64,000 nt of DNA from Camelus dromedarius (Eukaryota), in NCBI RefSeq assembly GCF_036321535.1, contig NC_087436.1, positions 35,280,001 through 35,344,000 on the forward strand. The letters are read 5' to 3'. Numbering within the stretch: position 1 is the first letter of the stretch; each line of letters starts with the position of its first letter. Positions 6,515 through 61,428 of the stretch are shown one piece after another. A model generated the notes under the pieces. The model was given only the letters and a program-made list of their open reading frames with translations. It was not told where the DNA came from and did not search any database. The position numbers were made by a program, and so were the translations under genes.

Positions 6515-6605
6515 AAAACAGATTTCTTCTGTATAGCGCAGGGAACTATATTCAATATCTTGTAATAAACTTTAATGAAAAAGAATATGAAAACAGATGT
6601 ATTTA

Positions 6606-6637
<32 letters not shown>

Positions 6638-6745
6638 AATAAAACTGGGACATTGTGTTGTATAACAGAAATTGACACATTATAACTGACTGTACTTCAA
6701 TTAAACAGAAAAAAACGGGGCTCTGACTCTCAAAAAAAAAAAAAA
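6515..6745 (+). mobile_element. Young 5'-truncated L1 3' end (cetartiodactyl/camelid type) with internal (TG)n(TA)n
   Basis: ctgtatagcgcagggaactatattcaatatcttgtaata...ctgggacattgtgttgtataacagaaattgacacattataactgactgtacttcaat followed by A-tails; candidate TSD aaagaatc 6507-6514 / aaggaatc 6744-6751. Confidence 0.9.
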
Positions 6746-6951: not shown

Positions 6952-7038
6952 CCTCCTCCCAAGGTTCCAAACAGGAAGTGGTTAACAACTTTGCTCCTCC
7001 TCCCAAGGTTCCAAACAGGAAGTGGTAACAACTTTGCT
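6952..7038. repeat. Tandem duplication, 44 bp + 43 bp
   Basis: cctcctcccaaggttccaaacaggaagtggt(t)aacaactttgct occurs twice, differing by a single 1-nt indel. Confidence 0.95.
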
Positions 7039-9039
7039 CCATTCTTGGCTTTTCTTCACACTTAATAACATGTATCGCATTTGGAACCACGGTCTAAAGA
7101 GAGGCAATCAGGACCTCATCGTATATTTGACCCACCCAGACCTAGCAATAGGAGTGGGAAGGCTTCCCCACCAACATTTATGACAGACTTTGTTCACGAC
7201 ATATCCTGACTTTTCTTTATTCTTGGTAAATAGAAAATGGGTATGATCTAGCATGACAAGCCAAATACATAATACCTTAGTACATTAGTGGAAGCTAGAG
7301 GGTTTTAGAAATAGAATTTTTTTTCTAGCCAAGCCTGGCTTTCAAAACTTCAGTCTTATAGTCAACCCAGATATTTTATTCTGAGCATCAAAATCTGAAT
7401 CTTTACTGCCTCTGACTCAATGCAATCCAGCTTCCACAATTTCAGTCGTCCTCAAGGCAAACAGATGACTGGCTGAACTGGGGGAGAGTCCTACTAAGGA
7501 AATGCAAAAGAGAAAAACATATTCACCCCTTTTAAAAAACATTGTTATCATGCTACACAAAAGAGGCTTGACCTGCTTATATACCAAGAGTAAAAGGCAA
7601 GTAGGTCAGAGTAGCCTGAAGTCAGACCGGAGAGAACCAATTTGTAGGTTAAATTGCACAAGACAGAGGGTGTAGTTTCAAAGTACAAGCAAAAGTATTT
7701 GTCTTAAAAGGAGAGAGAGCCCTTCCACTGAAATAGAAGAGAAAGGCTAGGGGCTTGTAATAATTAATTATCACTATATTGACTCCTTGCTGCCAATATA
7801 TTCTGAGTCTGTAATTTTTTGGTAATAGTTCTTTGATTCTAACAACGAGTGAATTGCAATGTTAAGAAATGTGAATGCTGTTTAACATGATTGGAAAGAA
7901 ATGGGGATGGGAAGAATGGAGAGTTCTAATGTACAATAGTTATTTTAAATGGAATGCTGTTGCTGTACAAAAATGTCCCATCTTCCTGTGATCCTTCCTT
8001 TAAACATATTTAAGTCATTTTATTAGAAGATAATAATCCTGTCAATTTACAACACAAGCACAGTGTTTTATTGTTTTTGCTCACATAAGAACATTAGCCA
8101 GACCCAAAGTCACAATGTGGCCTATTCTCCATATTAGCTGGTTTGGGTTTTAACCAGGACAGATGCCTTGTCTTGTATTTTCTTTCACTGTTTCCTTTTA
8201 TTATGTTTCCTTTCATGCATTTCTTTTATTCAACTTTAGAAATGGAATATGGCAACCAGATTTTAGACTATTAGCTTATTCAATAGAAAATGCATAGTCC
8301 TCTTTCAAATTGCACATCTGTCTGCTCTCAGGAATGTTAAATAACAATAGCACAACAACCAAGCTGCTTAGAATAGGAAATAAAAACCACCATGAGTTCT
8401 GGAACACTTGGAAGGATACTCTAGGCGGAATGTAACTAAGTAGTTGGAATTTGTGGTTTAGGCCACCAGGGTTAAAAATATGCCTTCTGAGCAATGTGCC
8501 TTAGGTTTTTTTTAAAGATCAGAAAATACCAGCACATATAATAGGATGATCAGAGCATCCTTCCTCCAGGCACCTCCACCATAAATATTGATTCTGTGAG
8601 TCTTACACGATTCTGTTCTCTTAATTAAAGCCAGAGAGGAGAGGAGAGCATGTGCTCTTAGGAAAAGGGAGAAGAGAGTCCTCTTTGTTTCCCATTAGGG
8701 CACATGAATTCCAGTTACCAGGGCTGCCATCTTTCTATTTCATCTGCTCAGCTAAGAAAAACAAATTCATTATATTTTACATATCACTAGTGGGAAGTTA
8801 CAGAAGTGAAGATAACAACATAGAAAAGAATCTTGTTGGAGAACCATTTTTCTAATGCACTTTACTGCCTTCTTCCTTTATCCAAGGCCCCAACACCAAA
8901 AATACAATGGATATGGGTGGTATAATCATACCAAAATGATATAAAATGAAACAAAACTCATCTGCTTCCAACAATGGGAAAGGTGAAAATAAAATGCTCA
9001 AGGAAAAAAATTAATTCTGCCATTGCAGTATTATTATAT

Positions 9040-15954: not shown

Positions 15955-17420
15955 GGGCACAAAAACAGACACATAGATCAATGGAACAGAATAGAGAGCC
16001 CAGAAATAAAACCATGCACATAAGGTCAACTAATCTATGGCAAAGAAAGCAAAAATATACAATGAAGAAAAAATTATCTCTTCAACAACTGGTGCTGGGA
16101 AAACTGGACAGCCACATGTAAAAAATAAACTTAGAACATTTTCTAATACCATATATAAAAATAAACTCAAAATGGATTAAAGACCTAAATGTAAGGCAGG
16201 AAACCATTAAACTAGAAGAAAACATAGGCAGAACACACTTTGGCATAAACTGCTGCCAGTGTATTTTTGAATCTGTCTCTTAAGGCAAAGGAAACAAAAG
16301 CAAAAAATAAGCAAGTGGGACCTAATTAAACTTAAAAGGTTTTATACAGCAAAGAAAACCATCAACGAAATGCAAAGACAACCTACTGAAAGGGAGAAAA
16401 TATTTGCAAATGATATGACCAATAAGGGGTTAATATCCAAAATATATAAACAGCTCATACAACTGAACATCAAAAAGACAAACAACCTGATTAAATAATG
16501 GGCAGAAGACTTGAATAGACATTTTTCCAAAGAAGATATACAGATGGCCAACAGACACATGAAAAGATGCTCAACATCGTTAATCGTCAGAGAGTGCAAA
16601 TCAAAACCACCATGAGATATCACCTCACACTTGTCAGAAAGGCTATCATCAAAAAGACTACAAATATCAAATGCTGGCAAGGATGTGGAGAAAAGAGAAT
16701 CCGTGTACACTGTTGGTGGGAATGTAAATTGATGCAACCACTGTGGAAAACATTGTACAGGTTCCTCAAAAAAATGAAAACTAAAAATACCATATGATCT
16801 AGCAATTTCACTCCTGTGTATATACCCAAAGAAAACAAAAACAATAATTTGAAAAAATACACGCACTCCACTGATCACAGCAGCATTATTTACAATAGCC
16901 AAGATATGGAAGCAACTTCAGTGCTCATCAACAGATGAGTGGATAAAGAAGACATGGTATAGATATACAATGTACTACTCAGCCACGAAAAAGAATGAAA
17001 TTTTGCCATTTGCAACAACATAGGTGGACTTGGAGGGTATTATGCTTAGTGAAATAAGTTAGAGAAAGAAATATTGTGTGGTATTACTTATATGTGAAAT
17101 CTAAAAAAAAGCAAACTAACGAATATAACAAAAAAGAAACAGACTCTCAGATACAGAGAACAAACTAGTGGTTACAGATGGGAAAAGAGAAGGGGAAGGG
17201 ATAGGATATGGGTAGGGAATTAAGAGGTACAAACTACTATGTATACAGTAAATAAGCTACAAGGCTATATTGTACAGCACAGGGAATACAGCCAGCATTT
17301 TATAGTAACTGTAAATGGAGTATAACCTTTAAAATTGTGAATTGCTCTGTTGTATACCTGAAACTTTTATAGTATTGGAAATCAACTATACCTCAATACA
17401 ATTTTTAATTAAAAAAATAA
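15955..17420 (+). mobile_element. 5'-truncated L1: C-terminal ORF2 (decayed), 3'UTR and A-rich tail
   Basis: Reads HKNRHIDQWNRIESPEI...; ORF 16567 gives [20 protein letters not shown], the ORF2p C-terminal region; many stops and frameshifts; L1MA-type 3'UTR; A-rich end near 17410-17420. Confidence 0.95.
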
Positions 17421-24970: not shown

Positions 24971-27900
24971 TTCATTCACTAGGTGCAAATAAATGCATAT
25001 ATATGTGTGTGAATGAATGTGAGCAATAGTATTTATTTATTATTTCCAGGAGTGAAATCCTTGCTCTAGGTCATATGCTTCTTTATGAAAGACTACCCAA
25101 TATTTATTATGTTTTGCATACAGAATATACATTTTCTTAAAATTTTGGTGGGCAAGGAACAGTGTCTATTAACAAAGTAATTTGTTGTAGAATACTGTGT
25201 AGATACGAGACATAGGGAAGAAAGAAAAAGAAAGAAATTGAGAGGAGTGAAAAGAAAAATACTACCTACAGGGATTTTTCCGAATTGGCTTGATACTTGA
25301 ATTGTTATTGTCAACCAGGCAAAAGGCCTCTGAGTAGGTGTCTACCTTAGAATTGAAAAGGTTTATCACTTGTGACCAAATTTTTTTTGTTTTTGCAATA
25401 GTGAGCAAACTGTCAGTCCACAAATGTGTGTCATTATTTGCATCACAACAGACACAGGCTAAGCTTCAAGTGAAAGAAATGTCACTGCACAATGTTCAGT
25501 CCTGGAAAGACATTTTCAAACAGAATGATGTATAAAAGCAGAAGACTGATTCAATCATGTGATGAGAAATATCACCATCCAGCCACAGGCTCTCTCCTCA
25601 TTTTCCCAAAGTTGTTTGGTCACAGTGTGATCAGAAACAGCAGAACAAGATGGAGGTGGTGATTCCTTGATCACATAGTATAATGAGTGTCATCCCTGTG
25701 TAATGAATGCTAGATGGCTCCCTTACAACAGCATGACCAATATACCCAAACTGGTCTCACAATGCATTATTCTTTTCTGATAAGCATGGCCATCTCTGTC
25801 TCTATGGCTTTTTTTCCCCAAGTCTTCTATGGCTGACCAAAACCATTCTGATTGACATCCCATTTATTTAGAGATGGCAGGTTACTCTCTAGCCCCTCTG
25901 TCCTAGAAACCATTCTTCTTGTTCTTCTTTTTTGAAAAAGAAATGAATTTACATAGCTCTGCTCTAATCCGTTATTTAAAGTTCAATTCTCAGAGTACCA
26001 TGTCATTTCCAAATTATTGTGTTATGCCTTGTTACCTCCCAGATATCACTTAAAATAAAATTTCTAAATTCTAAACCAAACCTTCATTATTAGTAGTAAC
26101 AAAAATTCTAAAATTCTTGTTGGATGATACCAGAAAATAGTCATTATGACAATAATTGTTATATTTAACAACATATTTATATAATTAGCTAATTTGATCA
26201 GTACTTCATAGTTCTAGTAATAGCATACTAATAGTATAGTATGGTCATAGCACAAGGATTTTAAATAAGGTATATCCAAAGGGTGAAGAAGAAAATTATT
26301 TCTGCATAAAAACAATGAAATATATGTATATACAGTGATAAGACTGCAATTTTTCAGAGTCCATCAAAATTCAACAGCCATTGAAACTTTTTATTATGTT
26401 ACTTTAATTTATGTTTCTTGTTCAAATTATGTGGAAATTTGTTTTTGTTTTACAAATACTGGCTGATGCATCGTATGGTGACATGCTGGCATTTGAATAT
26501 TTCCTTCTTTTCCTCCATTTTTCTAATGTAGACTACCCAGCAGCAAGTGGTCAAAAAGAAAACACCTAGACATAAAAGAGAATTCTAAGAAAGCAAAACC
26601 CTGTATCATCTATTTCTGAATAACTGAAGGTTGGCACATGTCCACATTTTCTGAATCATCTAGAGGGACTCGTTTGTCTTTGAGCACATTAAACCCAACT
26701 CTTTCAGATGATCTCCAGTTTTAAAGAAACTTGGACTCTACTGGTTAAATAAAAATTCAGGCTGATTTCTCAGTTCATATAATAAAAATAATGTGTGCTG
26801 TCCCAGGTTCAGGTGTTCTGAATTTTTTAAAATATGCAGTAAATTTGATAATTAACACTTGGATAAGTAAGCATGCAGGATATAGAACACACTTCAGGAA
26901 GAAAAAAAAAATACGTGTGGTGTTAGCAGAATGGGAAGGCTGCCCAGAACATGTCCCCTGCTATAAGATTAGTTTGGGAATTAGGGATTTACAGTGCTTA
27001 CCCCCATCTAGAGAGGACTTGGCAATATTCCCTAAAACTGCAAAGATAAATTGGTGGGAGTGAAAGAAGTAAGTGAAGGCCAGAGGCTGCTGGAAAACAG
27101 GCTTTCCTGTCACTAAGCTGTGATACTGTAAGGAATTTTGAAACCAACCTAGGTTCTAGTGTGAGAAAAAAAGACAGTTTCTGTATTTTAACAGCAATGA
27201 CAACTGACCAATTTGACCAATTCAGTCTTTGAGCAGTCAGCCTGAGAAACATAATGTAAAAGTCCATCTTGAGAGAGGAAATGGTGGTAGGGTCACCACT
27301 CAGTCAAAGAGCTTCACAGCTTATCTCCTGTCACAGTGTCTTGCATCCAGTGGAGTTTTGAGAATAAGACTGAATGATGATGATAAGGTTGAAGGCAATA
27401 ATGAATGATGACAAAGGTGAGATTTGAAAATAATTAGAAGACTATTGCAGGCAGGAAGAATTCATAATTTTTTAAAAGTGAATATGTGAATGTAAGTGGG
27501 GCAGATATGAGACATTGGCAATGAACTTATATTCTTTTCAAAAAGAAATCCATCAGAATTTGCTATCATTCAAAAATAAAGTAAAACAAAAAAAAGACTG
27601 TAACATGGTGAAGTAGTTTCTAAAAGCTATTGCAAAAATAAAACATTTGAATTCCTAAGGGGAATTAATTATATTAAGCAAAATAAACTGGGATTTAAAG
27701 TTTGCCTGGAAATTCCCCTCACCTGGCCCTAGACACCACTTTTGGTTTCTTATTTTGCTCTCTGTTGTCCTCCTGTCCTCTACTATGAGAGGAAATTCCA
27801 ATTTGAATGCAACGTTAATGGTCTTATTTTAAATATTTTAATGAGCAGATATATGTAATTTGCTATTGTTCCCCTTTATGTCTTCCTTCCTCCTTCTTTC

Positions 27901-29170: not shown

Positions 29171-29351
29171 TAGGGTTGCCAGATAAAAATATAGGATGCC
29201 CGGTTAAATTTGAATTTCCAATAAAACAACAAATAATTTTTAGTACATTATGCCATACTTATAATTTAAAATATTTGGTGTTTATTTGAAAATCAAATTT
29301 AAACTCAGAGTCTTGGATTTTTTTTTTCCTCTACTAAATCTGGCTATCCCA
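29171..29351. mobile_element. MER53 non-autonomous hAT-type DNA transposon (palindromic MITE)
   Basis: tagggttgccagataaaaatataggatgcccggttaaatttgaatttc...aaatcaaatttaaactc...atctggctatccca; inverted termini. Confidence 0.85.
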
Positions 29352-35560: not shown

Positions 35561-35689
35561 AGTTACTGCCATTCAGGCATGATGGAGATGGATAGCTAAA
35601 CAACCAGACTGCCTCACTGTTGGTCTGGTGGGGATGTGTCTGTCACTGTCTTTGAAGTATTTGGGCACTTACTACACATTCACCCTTAG

Positions 35690-37320
35690 TTTAGTTCTGT
35701 CTCTACCTCTACCTCTAACCTCTACCTTTCTTTCTCTCTCTCTCTCTCTCTGTTGCACTCTGTCTTCTCATTCTGTGGCAACCTTGAAAACTGTATGTTT
35801 AAGATGGCAACACTTCAAGATAGAAGAAGCCTGGAGTCACTGCTTAGAGGAGAGCTGCCAAAAAGAACTTCCCAAGCCACATCAAACTGTGAAATGAGCA
35901 AGAAATAAACCTTTATTGTATTAAGCTACTGAGATTGGGGGATTTGTTTGTTATTGCAGCATGGCCTAGTCTATCGTGTCTATTCCAAAAATTGACACCT
36001 GAAGTAGAGCACTGATGTAACAAACCTAAAATACAGGGCACTGACTTCGCTCACAGGTAGAATAAGCAAAGGAACTGATATGAGGGGCTTAGCAGTTGAC
36101 AATCTATGTTGCACAGTGACAAAATATTTGGATAAGCTGTCTCGTGCAATAACTTGAGAGGCAGACCATGTGCCTGCTGAGTGAAAAGCTCTAGGGGGAT
36201 AGCCTGGAAAATACCATGTTATTGTGTTTTGACTATTATTGGCTGTGCTTAACAAGTTATTACAGGAAAAGGATGAGTTTAGAAAAGAATTGTCTAGTTT
36301 GTAAGTGATTATCTCAGGGAAAAGAACTTGGGACATTGCAAGTTTGAAGAAATCTAGCTGCTTCTAAACCTGAAGGGGTGGAAAGTGGGTTTTTTGGATG
36401 CTATTAGCAATAATGGTCCAGTAAAAAAACTTCTCAATTGAATAAAGAAAACCTAGGAAAAGATGAGATTAAGGGTATGCTCTCCTCATTTGTTTTGTTT
36501 CCAGATAGGCTGAAGTAGCTGTCCCTAAGTCAAAAGAGAGAGGCTTGAAGACAAAAAAGCACAGAAATGAGCTAAATAACTTGTCTTTTAATTTCTAGGG
36601 ACTACACTGAGAGGTACCATCTCTAAACCCTGTAACAGAATGGTTTATTACTTGAGATGATACTTAATTTCATGTGTCAATTTGACTAGGCCATAGTGCT
36701 CAGGTATTCAATCAAAAACATTTTTCTAAATGTTTCTGTAATGGTGTTTTTTTAAATGAGATTAGCTTTTAAATCAGTGGATTTTGAGTTAAAAAGATTA
36801 CCCTTCATAATGTGGGTGAACCTCATTCAACTAGTTGAAGGTCTTACTAGAACAAAGATTGACCTCCCCTGAGCAAGGAAGAATTCTGTCAGCAGACTGT
36901 CTTTGGACTCAAACTGAACTCTTCCCTAAGTCTCCAGCCTTTTGGACTCCCGCATCAGATTTCAAACTAACCAAACCTCCACAATCATGTGAGCCAATTC
37001 CTTAAAATAAATCTTTCTCTTGAAATATATGCATATCCCTTATTGGTACTAATACACTTGAATATTGCGAACTTTCTACTGGATTTAATAACTGGGTAGT
37101 ACTTTGAGTTGTCCCTCTTAAAAAGGGTCAATATATGTTCTAGGTATGGGAGGGAGCGTGAAAGTGTTATTTGGTCATCTGAAGGGGGAGCTTTGACAAA
37201 AGCTAACTAAACATGCAGTGATCCCATTTCTCCTTCAGGGAACACAGGAAGGCTACATTTCCGAGCCTCCCTTCCAGGTATATTGGGGCTATATGACAAT
37301 TCTGGCCAATGGGATAGGAA
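35690..37320 (+). mobile_element. Relic MLT1 provirus: 5' LTR end (about 35690-35980), MLT1-int, and the first part of the 3' LTR (about 37195-37320)
   Basis: LTR end gagcaagaaataaacctttattgtattaagctactgagatt...cagcatggcctagtcta, followed directly by the int start aaattgacacctgaagtagagcactgatgtaacaaacctaaaata; the int ends gaagggggagc, then an LTR starts (ggctacatttccgagcctcccttcc). Confidence 0.7.
36657..37057 (+). mobile_element. MLT2 (ERVL) solo LTR nested in MLT1-int
   Basis: ttaatttcatgtgtcaatttgactaggcca...attacccttcataatgtgggtgaacctcattcaactagttgaagg...aatcatgtgagccaattccttaaaataaatct...ctaataca. Confidence 0.85.
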
Positions 37321-37720
37321 CACTGAAGAAAAAAGGCATTAACAAAAATATTTAAATCATATTTATTCTTTCAGTCCAAAATAACTACTGTTAATATTTT
37401 TCATATGACCTTCTATTACTATGTGCTTGCATATATATGTATATGTACTGTATAAAGTATATACCATAGTATATATATATACTGTACATACATAGGTTTA
37501 TGTACATATGCACATAATTATGAGAAAATCTTGTTTGGGGGAGTTTGCACACATATATACTATGGTATATACTATATATAGTACATATATAGTGCATATA
37601 CATACATATGCAAGCACGTAATAATAGAGGGTCATATGAAAAATATTAACAGTAATTATTTTAGACTGCAAGAATAAATATGATTTAAGTATTTTTGTTA
37701 ATGTCTTTTTTCTTCAGTGT
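37320..37720. repeat. Long inverted repeat: arms about 37320-37477 and 37553-37720, loop about 75 bp
   Basis: Manual alignment of the outer 114 nt (37321-37434 vs reverse complement of 37606-37719) gives 8 mismatches; the inner TA-rich parts also pair. Confidence 0.97.
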
Positions 37721-37895
37721 GAATTTGTCTTTTGCAATTTAAAAAGAAAAATATGATTTATCAAAATCAATCAAAGCAATTATCTTTCATGTTTGAGATC
37801 CTCACTTCATTCCACCATGTAACAACTCAGTCATTTTCATCTTCCACTGTCTTCCATTAGCACAATTCAATGACTATTTTCCATATCAGGACACT

Positions 37896-38156
37896 GTATT
37901 AAGATAGGCCAGGATTTGTTAGGGTAACAAAATAAACGCAGGTCTCAGTGGTTTAACATGACAAAGTTTCATGTCTCACTTAGGTCACCTCCAATTCAAG
38001 CCTTTGGTCATTATTCTTTACGTGGTGACTCTAGCATCCATCTCCTTCCTTCTGGTTACGTCACTAGCTTACCTACATGGCCCCAAAGTCCCCCCAAACA
38101 AGAGTAGGAAAGAACATGTATGGAGTTTTATGACCAGGGCAGAAAGAAATGTACAT
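37896..38156 (-). mobile_element. Second half of an MLT1J-like LTR, inverted relative to its first half at 37195-37320
   Basis: tgtattaagataggccaggatttgttagggtaacaaa...tctcagtggtttaacatgacaaagttt...ggagttttatgaccagggcagaaagaaatgtacat. Confidence 0.75.
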
Positions 38157-38220
38157 ACATAGGTTTGTGTGCACATGTAACATATAATTATGAGAAAATT
38201 TTGTTTGGGGGAGTTTGTAC
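38150..38220 (+). repeat. Direct repeat of the inverted-repeat loop (37483-37550)
   Basis: tgtacatacataggttt...ataattatgagaaaat(c/t)ttgtttgggggagtttg(c/t)ac at both sites. Confidence 0.95.
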
Positions 38221-38720
38221 CATAAACAAGTATTTCCAAGTTAAAAAATATTCCTAATAAATGAATTTTGCACTTCTCACTTATTTCCAGACTTCTTTTA
38301 TGAACACAGGCTTTTAAAAACTACAAATGGAAAACTTTGTGCTATTAGATCTTTATAGTGTATTCTATTCTATGACTTGACAGATTCTTACCAAAAAAAA
38401 TCATATTTTCTTGCTGGCTGGCCTTTAAACTGAGAAATAAAATTTTATTTGAACATCTATCTATAATAGAATTTTAAATATTATACACACTATTTTCTCC
38501 TTTGTTCTTTTCGCATATTTCTTTATATTGAATATTTTGTATAGCATTTCTACAAATTATTTTATTAGTATCCAATGATAATAAGTGCTAATCTGCTCAC
38601 CCAGAGTCCTAGATTAGATCGTTAGATAATATTTACTATTATGAATAATTCTGGATGAGCATCCTTGAATTTAAACATTTGTCTATATTTTCAATGGAAT
38701 TGTCAATGTCTGAATGGATT
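38221..38720 (-). mobile_element. Old L1 (L1ME-like) 3'UTR fragment
   Basis: ttattttattagtatccaatgataataagtgctaatctgctcacccagagtcct...tactattatgaataattctggatgagcatccttg. Confidence 0.5.
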
Positions 38721-51531: not shown

Positions 51532-51817
51532 TTTTTTTTTTTCAATTGAAGTATAGTCACTTTATAATGTGTCAATTTCTGGTGTACAGCATAATGCTTC
51601 AGTCATACATATACATACATACATTCTTCTTCGTATTCTTTTTCATTATAGATTACTATAAGACATTGAATATAGTTCCCTGTGCTGTACAGTGTAAACT
51701 TCTTATTTATCTATTTTATATATATAGTAGTTAGTATCTGCAAATCTTGAACTCCCAATTTATCCCTTCTCACCCCGATTCTCCCTTGGTAACCATAATT
51801 TTGTTCTCTATGTCTGT
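51532..51817 (-). mobile_element. Young 5'-truncated L1 3' end (cetartiodactyl/camelid type)
   Basis: T-tract then caattgaagtatagtcactttataatgtgtcaatttctggtgtacagc...attgaatatagttccctgtgctgtacag...tggtaaccataa; candidate TSD gtatctt on both sides. Confidence 0.9.
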
Positions 51818-60033: not shown

Positions 60034-60429
60034 GTCTACTCAGGGTGGCCCTAAAGGACAGTGGAGGGGAGAAATCTCCCCCAAAGGAAACACTGCATCT
60101 CATTGTCTTTTTTCCTGAAATCAACTGTAAATTGCATAACAGGTGGCTCATGCTACCAGCAGGCAGATTCTTGCTGTACTACTAGCCACTCCCCCCACCA
60201 CACACACACACACTATACTCCCCATCAATCCATATCTACGTTCTCACAGAAAACTCCCTAAGACAAGTTGACTGAGAAGGGAAGAATACAAGTCTGCTTT
60301 ACAGATTGCTCATACCAACAATAAGTGAACTGTTACTGTGTTGTAGTCTACTCAGTGTGGCCCTAAAAAACAGTGGAGGGGAGAAATCTCCCCCAAAAGA
60401 AACACTACATTTCACTGTCCTTTTTTCCT
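60034..60429 (+). repeat. Dispersed direct repeat, 83/84 bp (60034-60116 and 60346-60429)
   Basis: gtctactcag.gtggccctaaa..acagtggaggggagaaatctcccccaaa.gaaacact.cat.tca.tgtc ttttttcct; 7 substitutions and 1 indel by manual alignment. Confidence 0.95.
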
Positions 60430-60570
60430 AGAAGAAGAGAAATGGCCTAAGGCACAGTTCCAAACTAAGTCATAAGTCATTGGCTAGTAGTTTGGTAAAC
60501 AATTAGGAAATTGGAAAGAGGGATACTGAACAATTGGTGACAGAAATAATTGGGAATAAGCCTAATATAT
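60117..60570 (+). mobile_element. ERVL internal (pol connection/RNase H region) fragment, decayed
   Basis: cccctaagacaagttgactgagaagggaagaa...tttacagat...cagtggaggggagaaatctccccca...gagaaatggcct...aattggtgacagaaataattggga parallels HERV-L-type pol. Confidence 0.75.
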
Positions 60571-60624: not shown

Positions 60625-61428
60625 TTATTTGTTTGACTTTTTATTGAGGTATAGTTAGTGTACAATATTATATAAGTTTCAGGTGTACAACATAGTGATT
60701 AACAATTTTTAAAGGTTATACTCCATTTATAGTTATTATAAAATATTGGCTATTTTGGGGGCTTGGCTGTACAATATATCCTTGCAGTTTATTTATTTTA
60801 TACATAATAGTTTGTACCTCTTAATCCCATATCGCTATCTTGCCCCTCCCCGCTAACCTCACCCCACTGGTAATTACTAGTTTGTTTTCTGTATCTATGA
60901 ATCTGTTTCTGTTTGGTTATATTCACTAGCTTGTTGTATTTTGTAGATTCTGCATATAAGTGGTATCATGTAGTATTTGTCTTTCTCTGTCTGATTTGTT
61001 TTACTTAGCATAATATCCTCCAAGTCCATTCATGTTGTTGCAAATAGCAAAATTTCATTCTTTTTTTTATGGCTGGGTAAGCATTCTATCGTATCTGTAC
61101 ACCACATCTTTTTACATTCATCTGTTGATGGACACTTAGGTTACTTTCATATCTCAGCTGTTGTAAATAATGCTGCTAGAAACATTGGGATGCATGTATC
61201 AGTGCTTTTGGTTTTCTTTGACTGTATACTCAGGAGTGGCATTGCTGGGTCATATGGTAGTTCTATTTTTAGTGTTTGAGAAACCTCCATACTGTTTTCC
61301 ATAGTGGCTACACCAATTTACATTCCTGCCATCAGTGTACAAGGGTTCCCTTTTTTCCACATCCTTGCCAACATTTGTTATTTGTGTTCTTTTCGATGAT
61401 AGCCATTCTGATAGGTATGAGGTGATAT
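60625..61428 (-). mobile_element. 5'-truncated L1 (ORF2 end and 3'UTR), similar to the 15955-17420 element
   Basis: ttttattgaggtatagttagtgtacaatattatataagtttcaggtgtacaacatag...gaaacctccatactgttttccatagtggctacaccaatttacattcc. Confidence 0.93.

Follow-up and report, generated by a model that had tools for sequence, protein, structure and literature searches.

The stretch of 64,000 nucleotides of the dromedary genome analysed here (hereafter the window) contains a block of 597 nt (37553-38149) in inverted orientation and an extra copy of 232 nt (37321-37552) at the left end of this block; the inversion and the copied A'+S segment that the first-pass annotation had proposed for these positions were both found. 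The inverted block carries the second part of an LTR, the first part of which lies to the left of the extra copy on the opposite strand. Among the explanations considered, one replication-linked fold-back that ran off a strand end located in the LTR would fit the present order best, and we give it a chance just short of even; the steps of such an event are reconstructed from its product. The segments referred to in the following are listed from left to right.

35727-35985, plus strand: LTR-like 3' part of an upstream element, aligning to the reverse complement of 37896-38149
37181-37193, plus strand: purine-rich run directly before the LTR start, read from the sequence
37194-37320, plus strand: LTR piece 1, 127 nt, beginning with TG and aligning to an intact copy (L004) up to position 410 of the latter
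37321-37476, plus strand: A', left arm of the inverted repeat and first part of the 232-nt extra copy
37483-37555, plus strand: S1, loop of the hairpin, direct copy of S2 and second part of the extra copy, starting with TGTACAT
37553-37719, minus strand: A, right arm of the inverted repeat and start of the 597-nt inverted block
37720-37894, minus strand: B, single-copy AT-rich part of the inverted block, 175 nt, its orientation being deduced from its place between A and LTR piece 2
37895-38149, minus strand: LTR piece 2, 255 nt, ending with CA on the minus strand and forming the end of the inverted block
38150-38224, plus strand: S2, beginning with the palindromic word TGTACA and continuing into the right flank

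Inverted and direct copies

The inverted arms A' and A and the direct copies of S, both described by the first-pass annotation, proved to be genuine. Alignment of 37320-37476 with the reverse complement of 37553-37720 revealed 147 identical letters at 157 aligned sites, with 11 gap columns in two gaps that are both located in the TA-rich end, and yielded a score of 236 as compared with a maximum of 38 in 1000 shuffles. The direct repeat of 37483-37555 and 38150-38224 is identical at 66 of 72 sites and scored 100, the maximum of 1000 shuffles being 29. The previously proposed layout was retained with adjusted borders: the left arm ends at 37476 and not at 37480, the S copies reach to about 37555 and 38224, and the second LTR part, formerly placed at 37896-38156, ends at 37895 and starts at 38149 or 38156, depending on the assignment of the shared word. 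Folding of 37310-37730 as single-stranded DNA resulted in one long stem with S as the loop (-128.9 kcal/mol, z -23.6). No paralogue of B, A, S or the right flank was detected in the window above the level of shuffled scans; the right flank is presumably an old L1.

The arms and the S copies also stood out in a self-comparison of the whole window, in which only two further pairs of similar closeness were present, a direct repeat at 60 kb and a near-palindrome at 29.2 kb. The former consists of the copies 60034-60139 and 60346-60450, which are 312 nt apart and mismatched at 7 of 83 sites; judged by this divergence, the duplication would be of about the same age as the rearrangement, and the 200 nt between its copies have no source elsewhere in the window. 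The near-palindrome (29204-29302, 100 nt, 77% self-complementary) is presumably an old miniature DNA transposon.

The split LTR and an intact copy

The minus-strand orientation that had been claimed for the second LTR part is supported by two comparisons, since its reverse complement matches both the upstream LTR and the intact copy L004. The reverse complement of 37896-38149 aligned to the plus-strand sequence 35727-35985 with z 6.9 (reached by 0 of 500 shuffles; 77 mismatches at 206 sites), as compared with z -0.1 for the forward orientation. Piece 1 had no match in the window and gave z 0.2 against the upstream LTR.

The search for an intact copy was performed with a short motif from piece 1, so that the score of piece 1 itself is inflated, while piece 2 played no part in the selection. 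A scan of metagenomes returned 19 loci, including the useful L004, the weakly matching L001 and L003 (one sequence) and 14 loci at chance level; L006 and L013 were left out of the test of piece 2 on account of their short flanks. L004 is CpG-poor and contains an intact LTR-like copy of about 391-396 nt, as compared with 382 nt for the sum of both LTR pieces in the window. Piece 1 ends at position 410 of L004 and piece 2 starts at position 411. Over 75 sets of alignment penalties, the gap between the pieces was 0 in 29 sets and -11 to +5 in 62, and a piece was misplaced in 13. The score of piece 2 against L004 was reached by 5 of 3000 shuffles, and that score combined with a landing not more than 11 nt from the end of piece 1 by none of 3000. 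Moreover, the second part of L004 matched the upstream LTR of the window (z 4.2, 1 of 300 shuffles). The abutment rests on this single paralogue, which is about 62% alike; as L004 was the best of 36 scored loci (17 from metagenomes, 12 from prokaryotes and 7 from viruses), its score alone is borderline when corrected (about 0.06), and much of the weight of the abutment is carried by the landing place.

The sequence shared by L001, L003 and L013, an identical, CpG-poor and weakly LTR-like stretch present in three metagenome assemblies, gave z 2.1-2.5, no better than a chance phage contig (z 2.2), and is probably host or contaminant animal DNA. The piece-1 motif yielded 12 loci in prokaryote genomes (best z 1.7) and none in viral contigs, in which a shorter form of the motif found seven loci, none of them CpG-poor (best z 2.2).

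With respect to the type of the element, the pieces show the termini of a MaLR/MLT1-type LTR, with TG at 37194-37195 in piece 1 and CA at 37896-37895 on the minus strand in piece 2, and L004, as the only intact copy (about 400 nt), shows homology to the two pieces in the proper order. Both pieces may belong to the MLT1J subfamily. The flanks of the split LTR agree at one of the five letters of a 5-nt target-site duplication, as expected if this LTR is the 3' LTR of a longer element; the 5' end of such an element was not found. Remnants of a dead, longer LTR element occupy 35583-37193 on the plus strand. Its LTR-like 3' part, which reaches to 35985 and contains a CT-rich microsatellite (35701-35750), is followed by internal-like sequence, presumably the internal region of a MaLR. 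A second LTR-like element is nested within the latter at about 36640-37050 and is assumed to be MLT2-like. The split LTR may represent the 3' LTR of this dead element, with piece 1 having no counterpart in the upstream copy, and 35727-35985 possibly is the 5' LTR of the same MaLR-type element. From general knowledge of retroelements, the run at 37181-37193 is assumed to be polypurine-tract-like.

Sequence context of the rearrangement

The window is AT-rich and CpG-poor. The rearrangement is located in non-coding DNA and no gene was found to be touched by it, in a frame search that short exons would escape. Rfam provided no matches in the window, and none of the 293 stop-to-stop frames of at least 55 residues had a Pfam match above the cut-off. 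The sole Pfam match among these frames, 2OG-FeII_Oxy_5 at 25474-25659 on the plus strand (E 0.00048, 20.9 bits, cut-off 27), is located 12 kb from the rearrangement and is probably due to chance. The window additionally contains a young tandem duplication of 44 nt (6952-7040, 97% match) and two shorter L1 3' ends (6529-6714 and 51532-51692), which we take to be camelid-like.

Earlier order of the segments and their joints

The earlier order was probably LTR piece 1, LTR piece 2, B', A', S and right flank, as deduced from the arrangement of the copies and the abutting LTR pieces. A symbol search over the 48 single-copy orders with an intact LTR revealed that this order, which is the one claimed by the first-pass annotation, needs the fewest new joints, namely three, the next best needing four. 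When the condition of an intact LTR was dropped, four of 384 single-copy orders needed three joints, one of them being the same order. None of the 384 orders leads to the present one in a single step, whether a deletion, an inversion, a tandem duplication or a 4-point switch, and a single 4-point template switch was thus rejected, since two switches are needed from the intact-LTR order. Starting from the latter, three simple steps are required, or two when a 4-point switch is among them, and every route reuses a breakpoint.

At the left joint, piece 1 and the B side share one letter. The middle joint lies in TA-rich DNA, where S1 passes into A with an overlap of ATA if one indel is allowed; an alternative register uses the TGTAC that closes S2 and the palindromic TGTACA that opens S, with more changes and about five imperfect letters. 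At the right joint, S2 starts with TGTACAT and no letters are shared further left. The word TGTACAT is present at 38150 and at 37483, and we infer a 7-letter microhomology for the right joint, the LTR side of which is no longer in place; L004 backs it weakly. For the shorter word TGTACA, 33 occurrences were counted in 64 kb; the region of 36.5-39 kb contains three of them, one at each start of S and one inside S1. This placement implies that one palindromic word can serve two joints. Regarding the microhomologies named by the first-pass annotation, the TGTACAT at the right joint was recovered, with the match of seven letters being deduced, as was the TA-rich middle joint, the left joint adding one letter; all of them are blurred by age and TA slippage.

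Both old cut positions were used on both sides, with a precision of about 11 nt at the LTR cut and of about 6 nt at the A'/S border. The chance of such a double reuse is roughly 0.0003-0.002 for independent landing in 400-1000 nt, and 2-6% if the palindromic word is held responsible for the second reuse. A double reuse of this kind is not predicted by free fork-stalling jumps.

Divergence and age of the copies

When the words at the joints were excluded, 10 of 156 sites were mismatched between the arms and 6 of 61 between the S copies (Fisher p 0.39). The pooled divergence of 16 in 217 sites, i.e. 7.4% (95% interval 4.3-11.7%), comprises 14 transitions and two transversions and agrees with the divergence of about 7% and the old event suggested by the first-pass annotation. 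The transition bias together with the equal divergence indicates aged copies of one age rather than a chimera or misassembly. The equal divergence of the inverted and the direct duplication is compatible with a single event, the third joint carrying no date. The corrected divergence per copy is 0.039; the two LTR stretches reach 0.259 and two L1 copies of the window 0.117. The L1 copies are 3' fragments located at 16000-17401 (plus strand) and 60639-61428 (minus strand), which are 20% apart and serve as an internal age scale.

These values correspond to ages of 39, 22 and 8 million years at rates of 1.0, 1.8 and 5 x 10^-9 per year, with a full span of 4-64 million years, the rates of 1.0 and 1.8 x 10^-9 being assumed (1.8 from branch lengths). 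The third rate was derived from the one applied in PMC8605555. An underestimated age could result from conversion between the arms; extensive conversion is disfavoured by the equal divergence of the direct copies. Camels left the other even-toed ungulates 55-60 million years ago and the split of Camelini and Lamini is dated to about 16.3 million years ago, according to the accessible text of PMC3514880 and PMC12337305, respectively. The event probably falls within the camelid line, and the age range deduced from the copies straddles the camel/llama split.

Mechanism of the rearrangement

A fold-back running off at a strand end would have taken place in a single germ-line episode during DNA replication or repair, some tens of million years ago. 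Once past S, a growing strand would have turned back on itself in TA-rich DNA by means of a few letters in common, with S (about 70 nt) forming the loop. Reverse copying of A', B' and LTR piece 2 from the strand itself would have proceeded over 597 nt until a strand end, i.e. a nick, gap or break, was reached in the LTR. The new end would then have re-annealed at the start of S by means of TGTACA(T), present there and at the LTR cut, with synthesis continuing rightwards. The forward arm would have lost about 430 nt beside the strand end when piece 1 was joined to A' over one shared letter. The predicted outcome is a 597-nt inversion, a 232-nt extra copy at the left joint and a hairpin-capable repeat with a stem of 157 bp, which later decayed. 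A strand end in the LTR would explain why piece 1 ends where the back-copy ends, and a fold-back to this end would account for the duplication and for the adjacency of the cut positions together. The length of 597 nt exceeds a typical eukaryotic Okazaki fragment, which counts against the fold-back, as do the microhomologies of one letter, of three or about five imperfect letters and of seven deduced letters at the joints. For small inverted triplications, it was proposed in the accessible part of PMC13334657 that a 3' flap folds back and that a switch takes place at a nick located upstream. Adjacent ancestral positions were argued by Frith and Khan, in the portion of their report at hand (PMC5829575), to mean breakage and rejoining and not template switching, which likewise speaks against the fold-back.

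The end product alone fits the fold-back, an inversion between two breaks and routes of two events alike. Two breaks, one in the LTR and one at the A'/S border, could have been followed by rejoining of the piece in inverted orientation, by microhomology-mediated end joining on the right and with an insert of 232 nt on the left that was templated by the sister strand across the second break. This alternative is unlikely in our judgement but has to be taken seriously, as the use of both old positions on both sides (about 11 and 6 nt) is a mark of reciprocal breaks in the available text of PMC5829575, and that of PMC7702065 presents inversions in humans that lost almost nothing and carry a templated insert (8 to 59 nt) at one joint. 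The insert of the camel locus is, however, four times longer than the inserts described in the latter text, two breaks 600 nt apart and an intact template are required, and the end of the insert is located exactly where a fold-back would begin. We consider it slightly less likely still that two events separated in time took place. Either a 4-point switch would have generated an inverted duplication with arms of 597 nt, the left arm of which later lost about 430 nt by deletion at the hairpin base, or, on the mirror route, a short inverted copy would have been followed by a simple inversion. Both routes were obtained as two-step solutions in the symbol search, the left joint with its one shared letter differs in kind, and the instability of long young inverted repeats also counts for two events; moreover, a hairpin-linked loss was demonstrated in E. 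coli (accessible text of PMC13334657). Nevertheless, the second event must have struck the joint of the first within about 11 nt, for which the chance is 2-6% unless the hairpin base guides it.

The first-pass annotation had interpreted the event as FoSTeS/MMBIR-type, and the three joints, the local templating and the gain of 232 nt are in accordance with this class, whereas free jumps are disfavoured by the both-sided reuse of positions and the left joint of one letter. In its plain form, with three free jumps between nearby templates and no strand end fixing the positions, this mechanism is improbable. It provides for three joints, copy gain, inverted and direct joints, short microhomologies and one age, and it matches the 'local n-jumps' of PMC7025897 as far as they are described in the available text, but it leaves the double reuse of old positions unexplained (0.0003-0.002, or 2-6% with the palindromic word). 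It is highly improbable that the LTR pieces derive from two different insertions and that the earlier order was another one. Such an origin is compatible with the three other single-copy orders that also need three joints when no intact LTR is demanded, and with the missing match of piece 1 in the upstream LTR that piece 2 does match; against it, the pieces fit one intact copy end to start, sum to its length and provide a TG start and a CA end. An artefact of assembly or library construction in the form of a fold-back chimera can practically be dismissed, since the arms of a chimera would be near-identical, whereas 16 mismatches, 14 of them transitions and two transversions, were counted at 217 sites of the copies.

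Several further candidates were rejected. A DUP-TRP/INV-DUP structure or small inverted triplication does not apply, as A and S are present in two copies each and B and piece 2 in one each. Recombination between older inverted repeats was discarded because the inverted block extends 430 nt beyond arm A and an exchange between A' and A would flip only S. A staggered-break inversion predicts inverted duplications at the breakpoints, whereas the S copies are direct. A retrotransposed insert with S as target duplication was rejected since an A-tail was not observed and loss of the source copy would have to be postulated.

Relation to described rearrangements

The general kind of this rearrangement, a local copy-and-paste event with three joints, is already catalogued, and the camel locus adds a case. 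The local n-jumps of Li et al. 2020, as characterized in the available part of PMC7025897, likewise comprise several local joints on one derivative strand with low copy gain, and their mixture of inverted and direct joints was read as one copy-and-paste event. They differ from the camel locus in being somatic and usually kilobases to a megabase in size, the latter being a fixed-looking germ-line fossil of less than 1 kb deduced without a matched normal. By analogy, the camel locus would work like a local 3-jump in kind. The localized rearrangements of Frith and Khan 2018 resemble it in their sub-kilobase inversions with adjoining duplication or deletion and in the reuse of adjacent positions, which was regarded as a sign of shattering (PMC5829575, accessible text); the shattering class is without duplication, however, and the camel order is absent from the patterns in that portion of the report.

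In the 4-point template switching of Walker et al. 2021 (PMC7954356, accessible part), a reverse-copied segment also results in an inverted repeat and the '4 before 1' type in a direct duplication, but two joints are formed and the copied length has a median of 12 and a maximum of 128 nt in the best set, as compared with three joints and 597 nt at the camel locus. The small inverted triplications or DUP-TRP/INV-DUP structures in the available text of PMC13334657 are similar in scale, direct flanking copies, short loop, reverse-complement joints of about six letters and the fold-back model, whereas the camel locus lacks a three-copy segment and its inverted block is mostly single-copy. The inversions with templated insertions reported in the accessible part of PMC7702065 are likewise near-balanced, with microhomology at one joint and a templated insert at the other, but are of megabase scale with inserts of 8-59 nt. 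Microinversions in general are known and used as markers, with a debated mechanism (PMC8755829 and PMC3123225, text at hand), and were judged useful but imperfect for this purpose (PMC3123225, same portion). A camelid report of such an inversion was not found among the papers listed in a search of the openly accessible literature.

Function and significance

No sign of a function was obtained. Decay proceeded at the same pace in the arms and in the direct copies. Changes compatible with G.U pairing accounted for five of eight changes on the plus strand (p 0.73), and selection on an RNA hairpin was rejected in the absence of a strand bias. According to PMC10710096, template switches can found microRNA hairpins, and shorter template-switch hairpins were shown to be transcribed in primates. 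By analogy, the 157-bp stem might be transcribed as a lineage-specific hairpin RNA, for which the present data provide no support and to which we assign a very slight chance.

The locus provides a teaching example of a three-joint local rearrangement that is readable and roughly datable from a single sequence, because the split repeat gives the earlier order and the two duplications give the clock. It would matter more only if the order recurs genome-wide, in which case strand-end fold-back could be separated from free template switching in the germ line. It is doubtful at present whether the order records a separate germ-line route that recurs, namely fold-back synthesis running off at a nick or gap. 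If such a route does exist, its scars would be findable and datable from one genome by paired inverted and direct copies. The event itself might mark all camelids or one tribe, and a recurring route would provide a record of tens of million years along with homoplasy-poor markers for camelid history.
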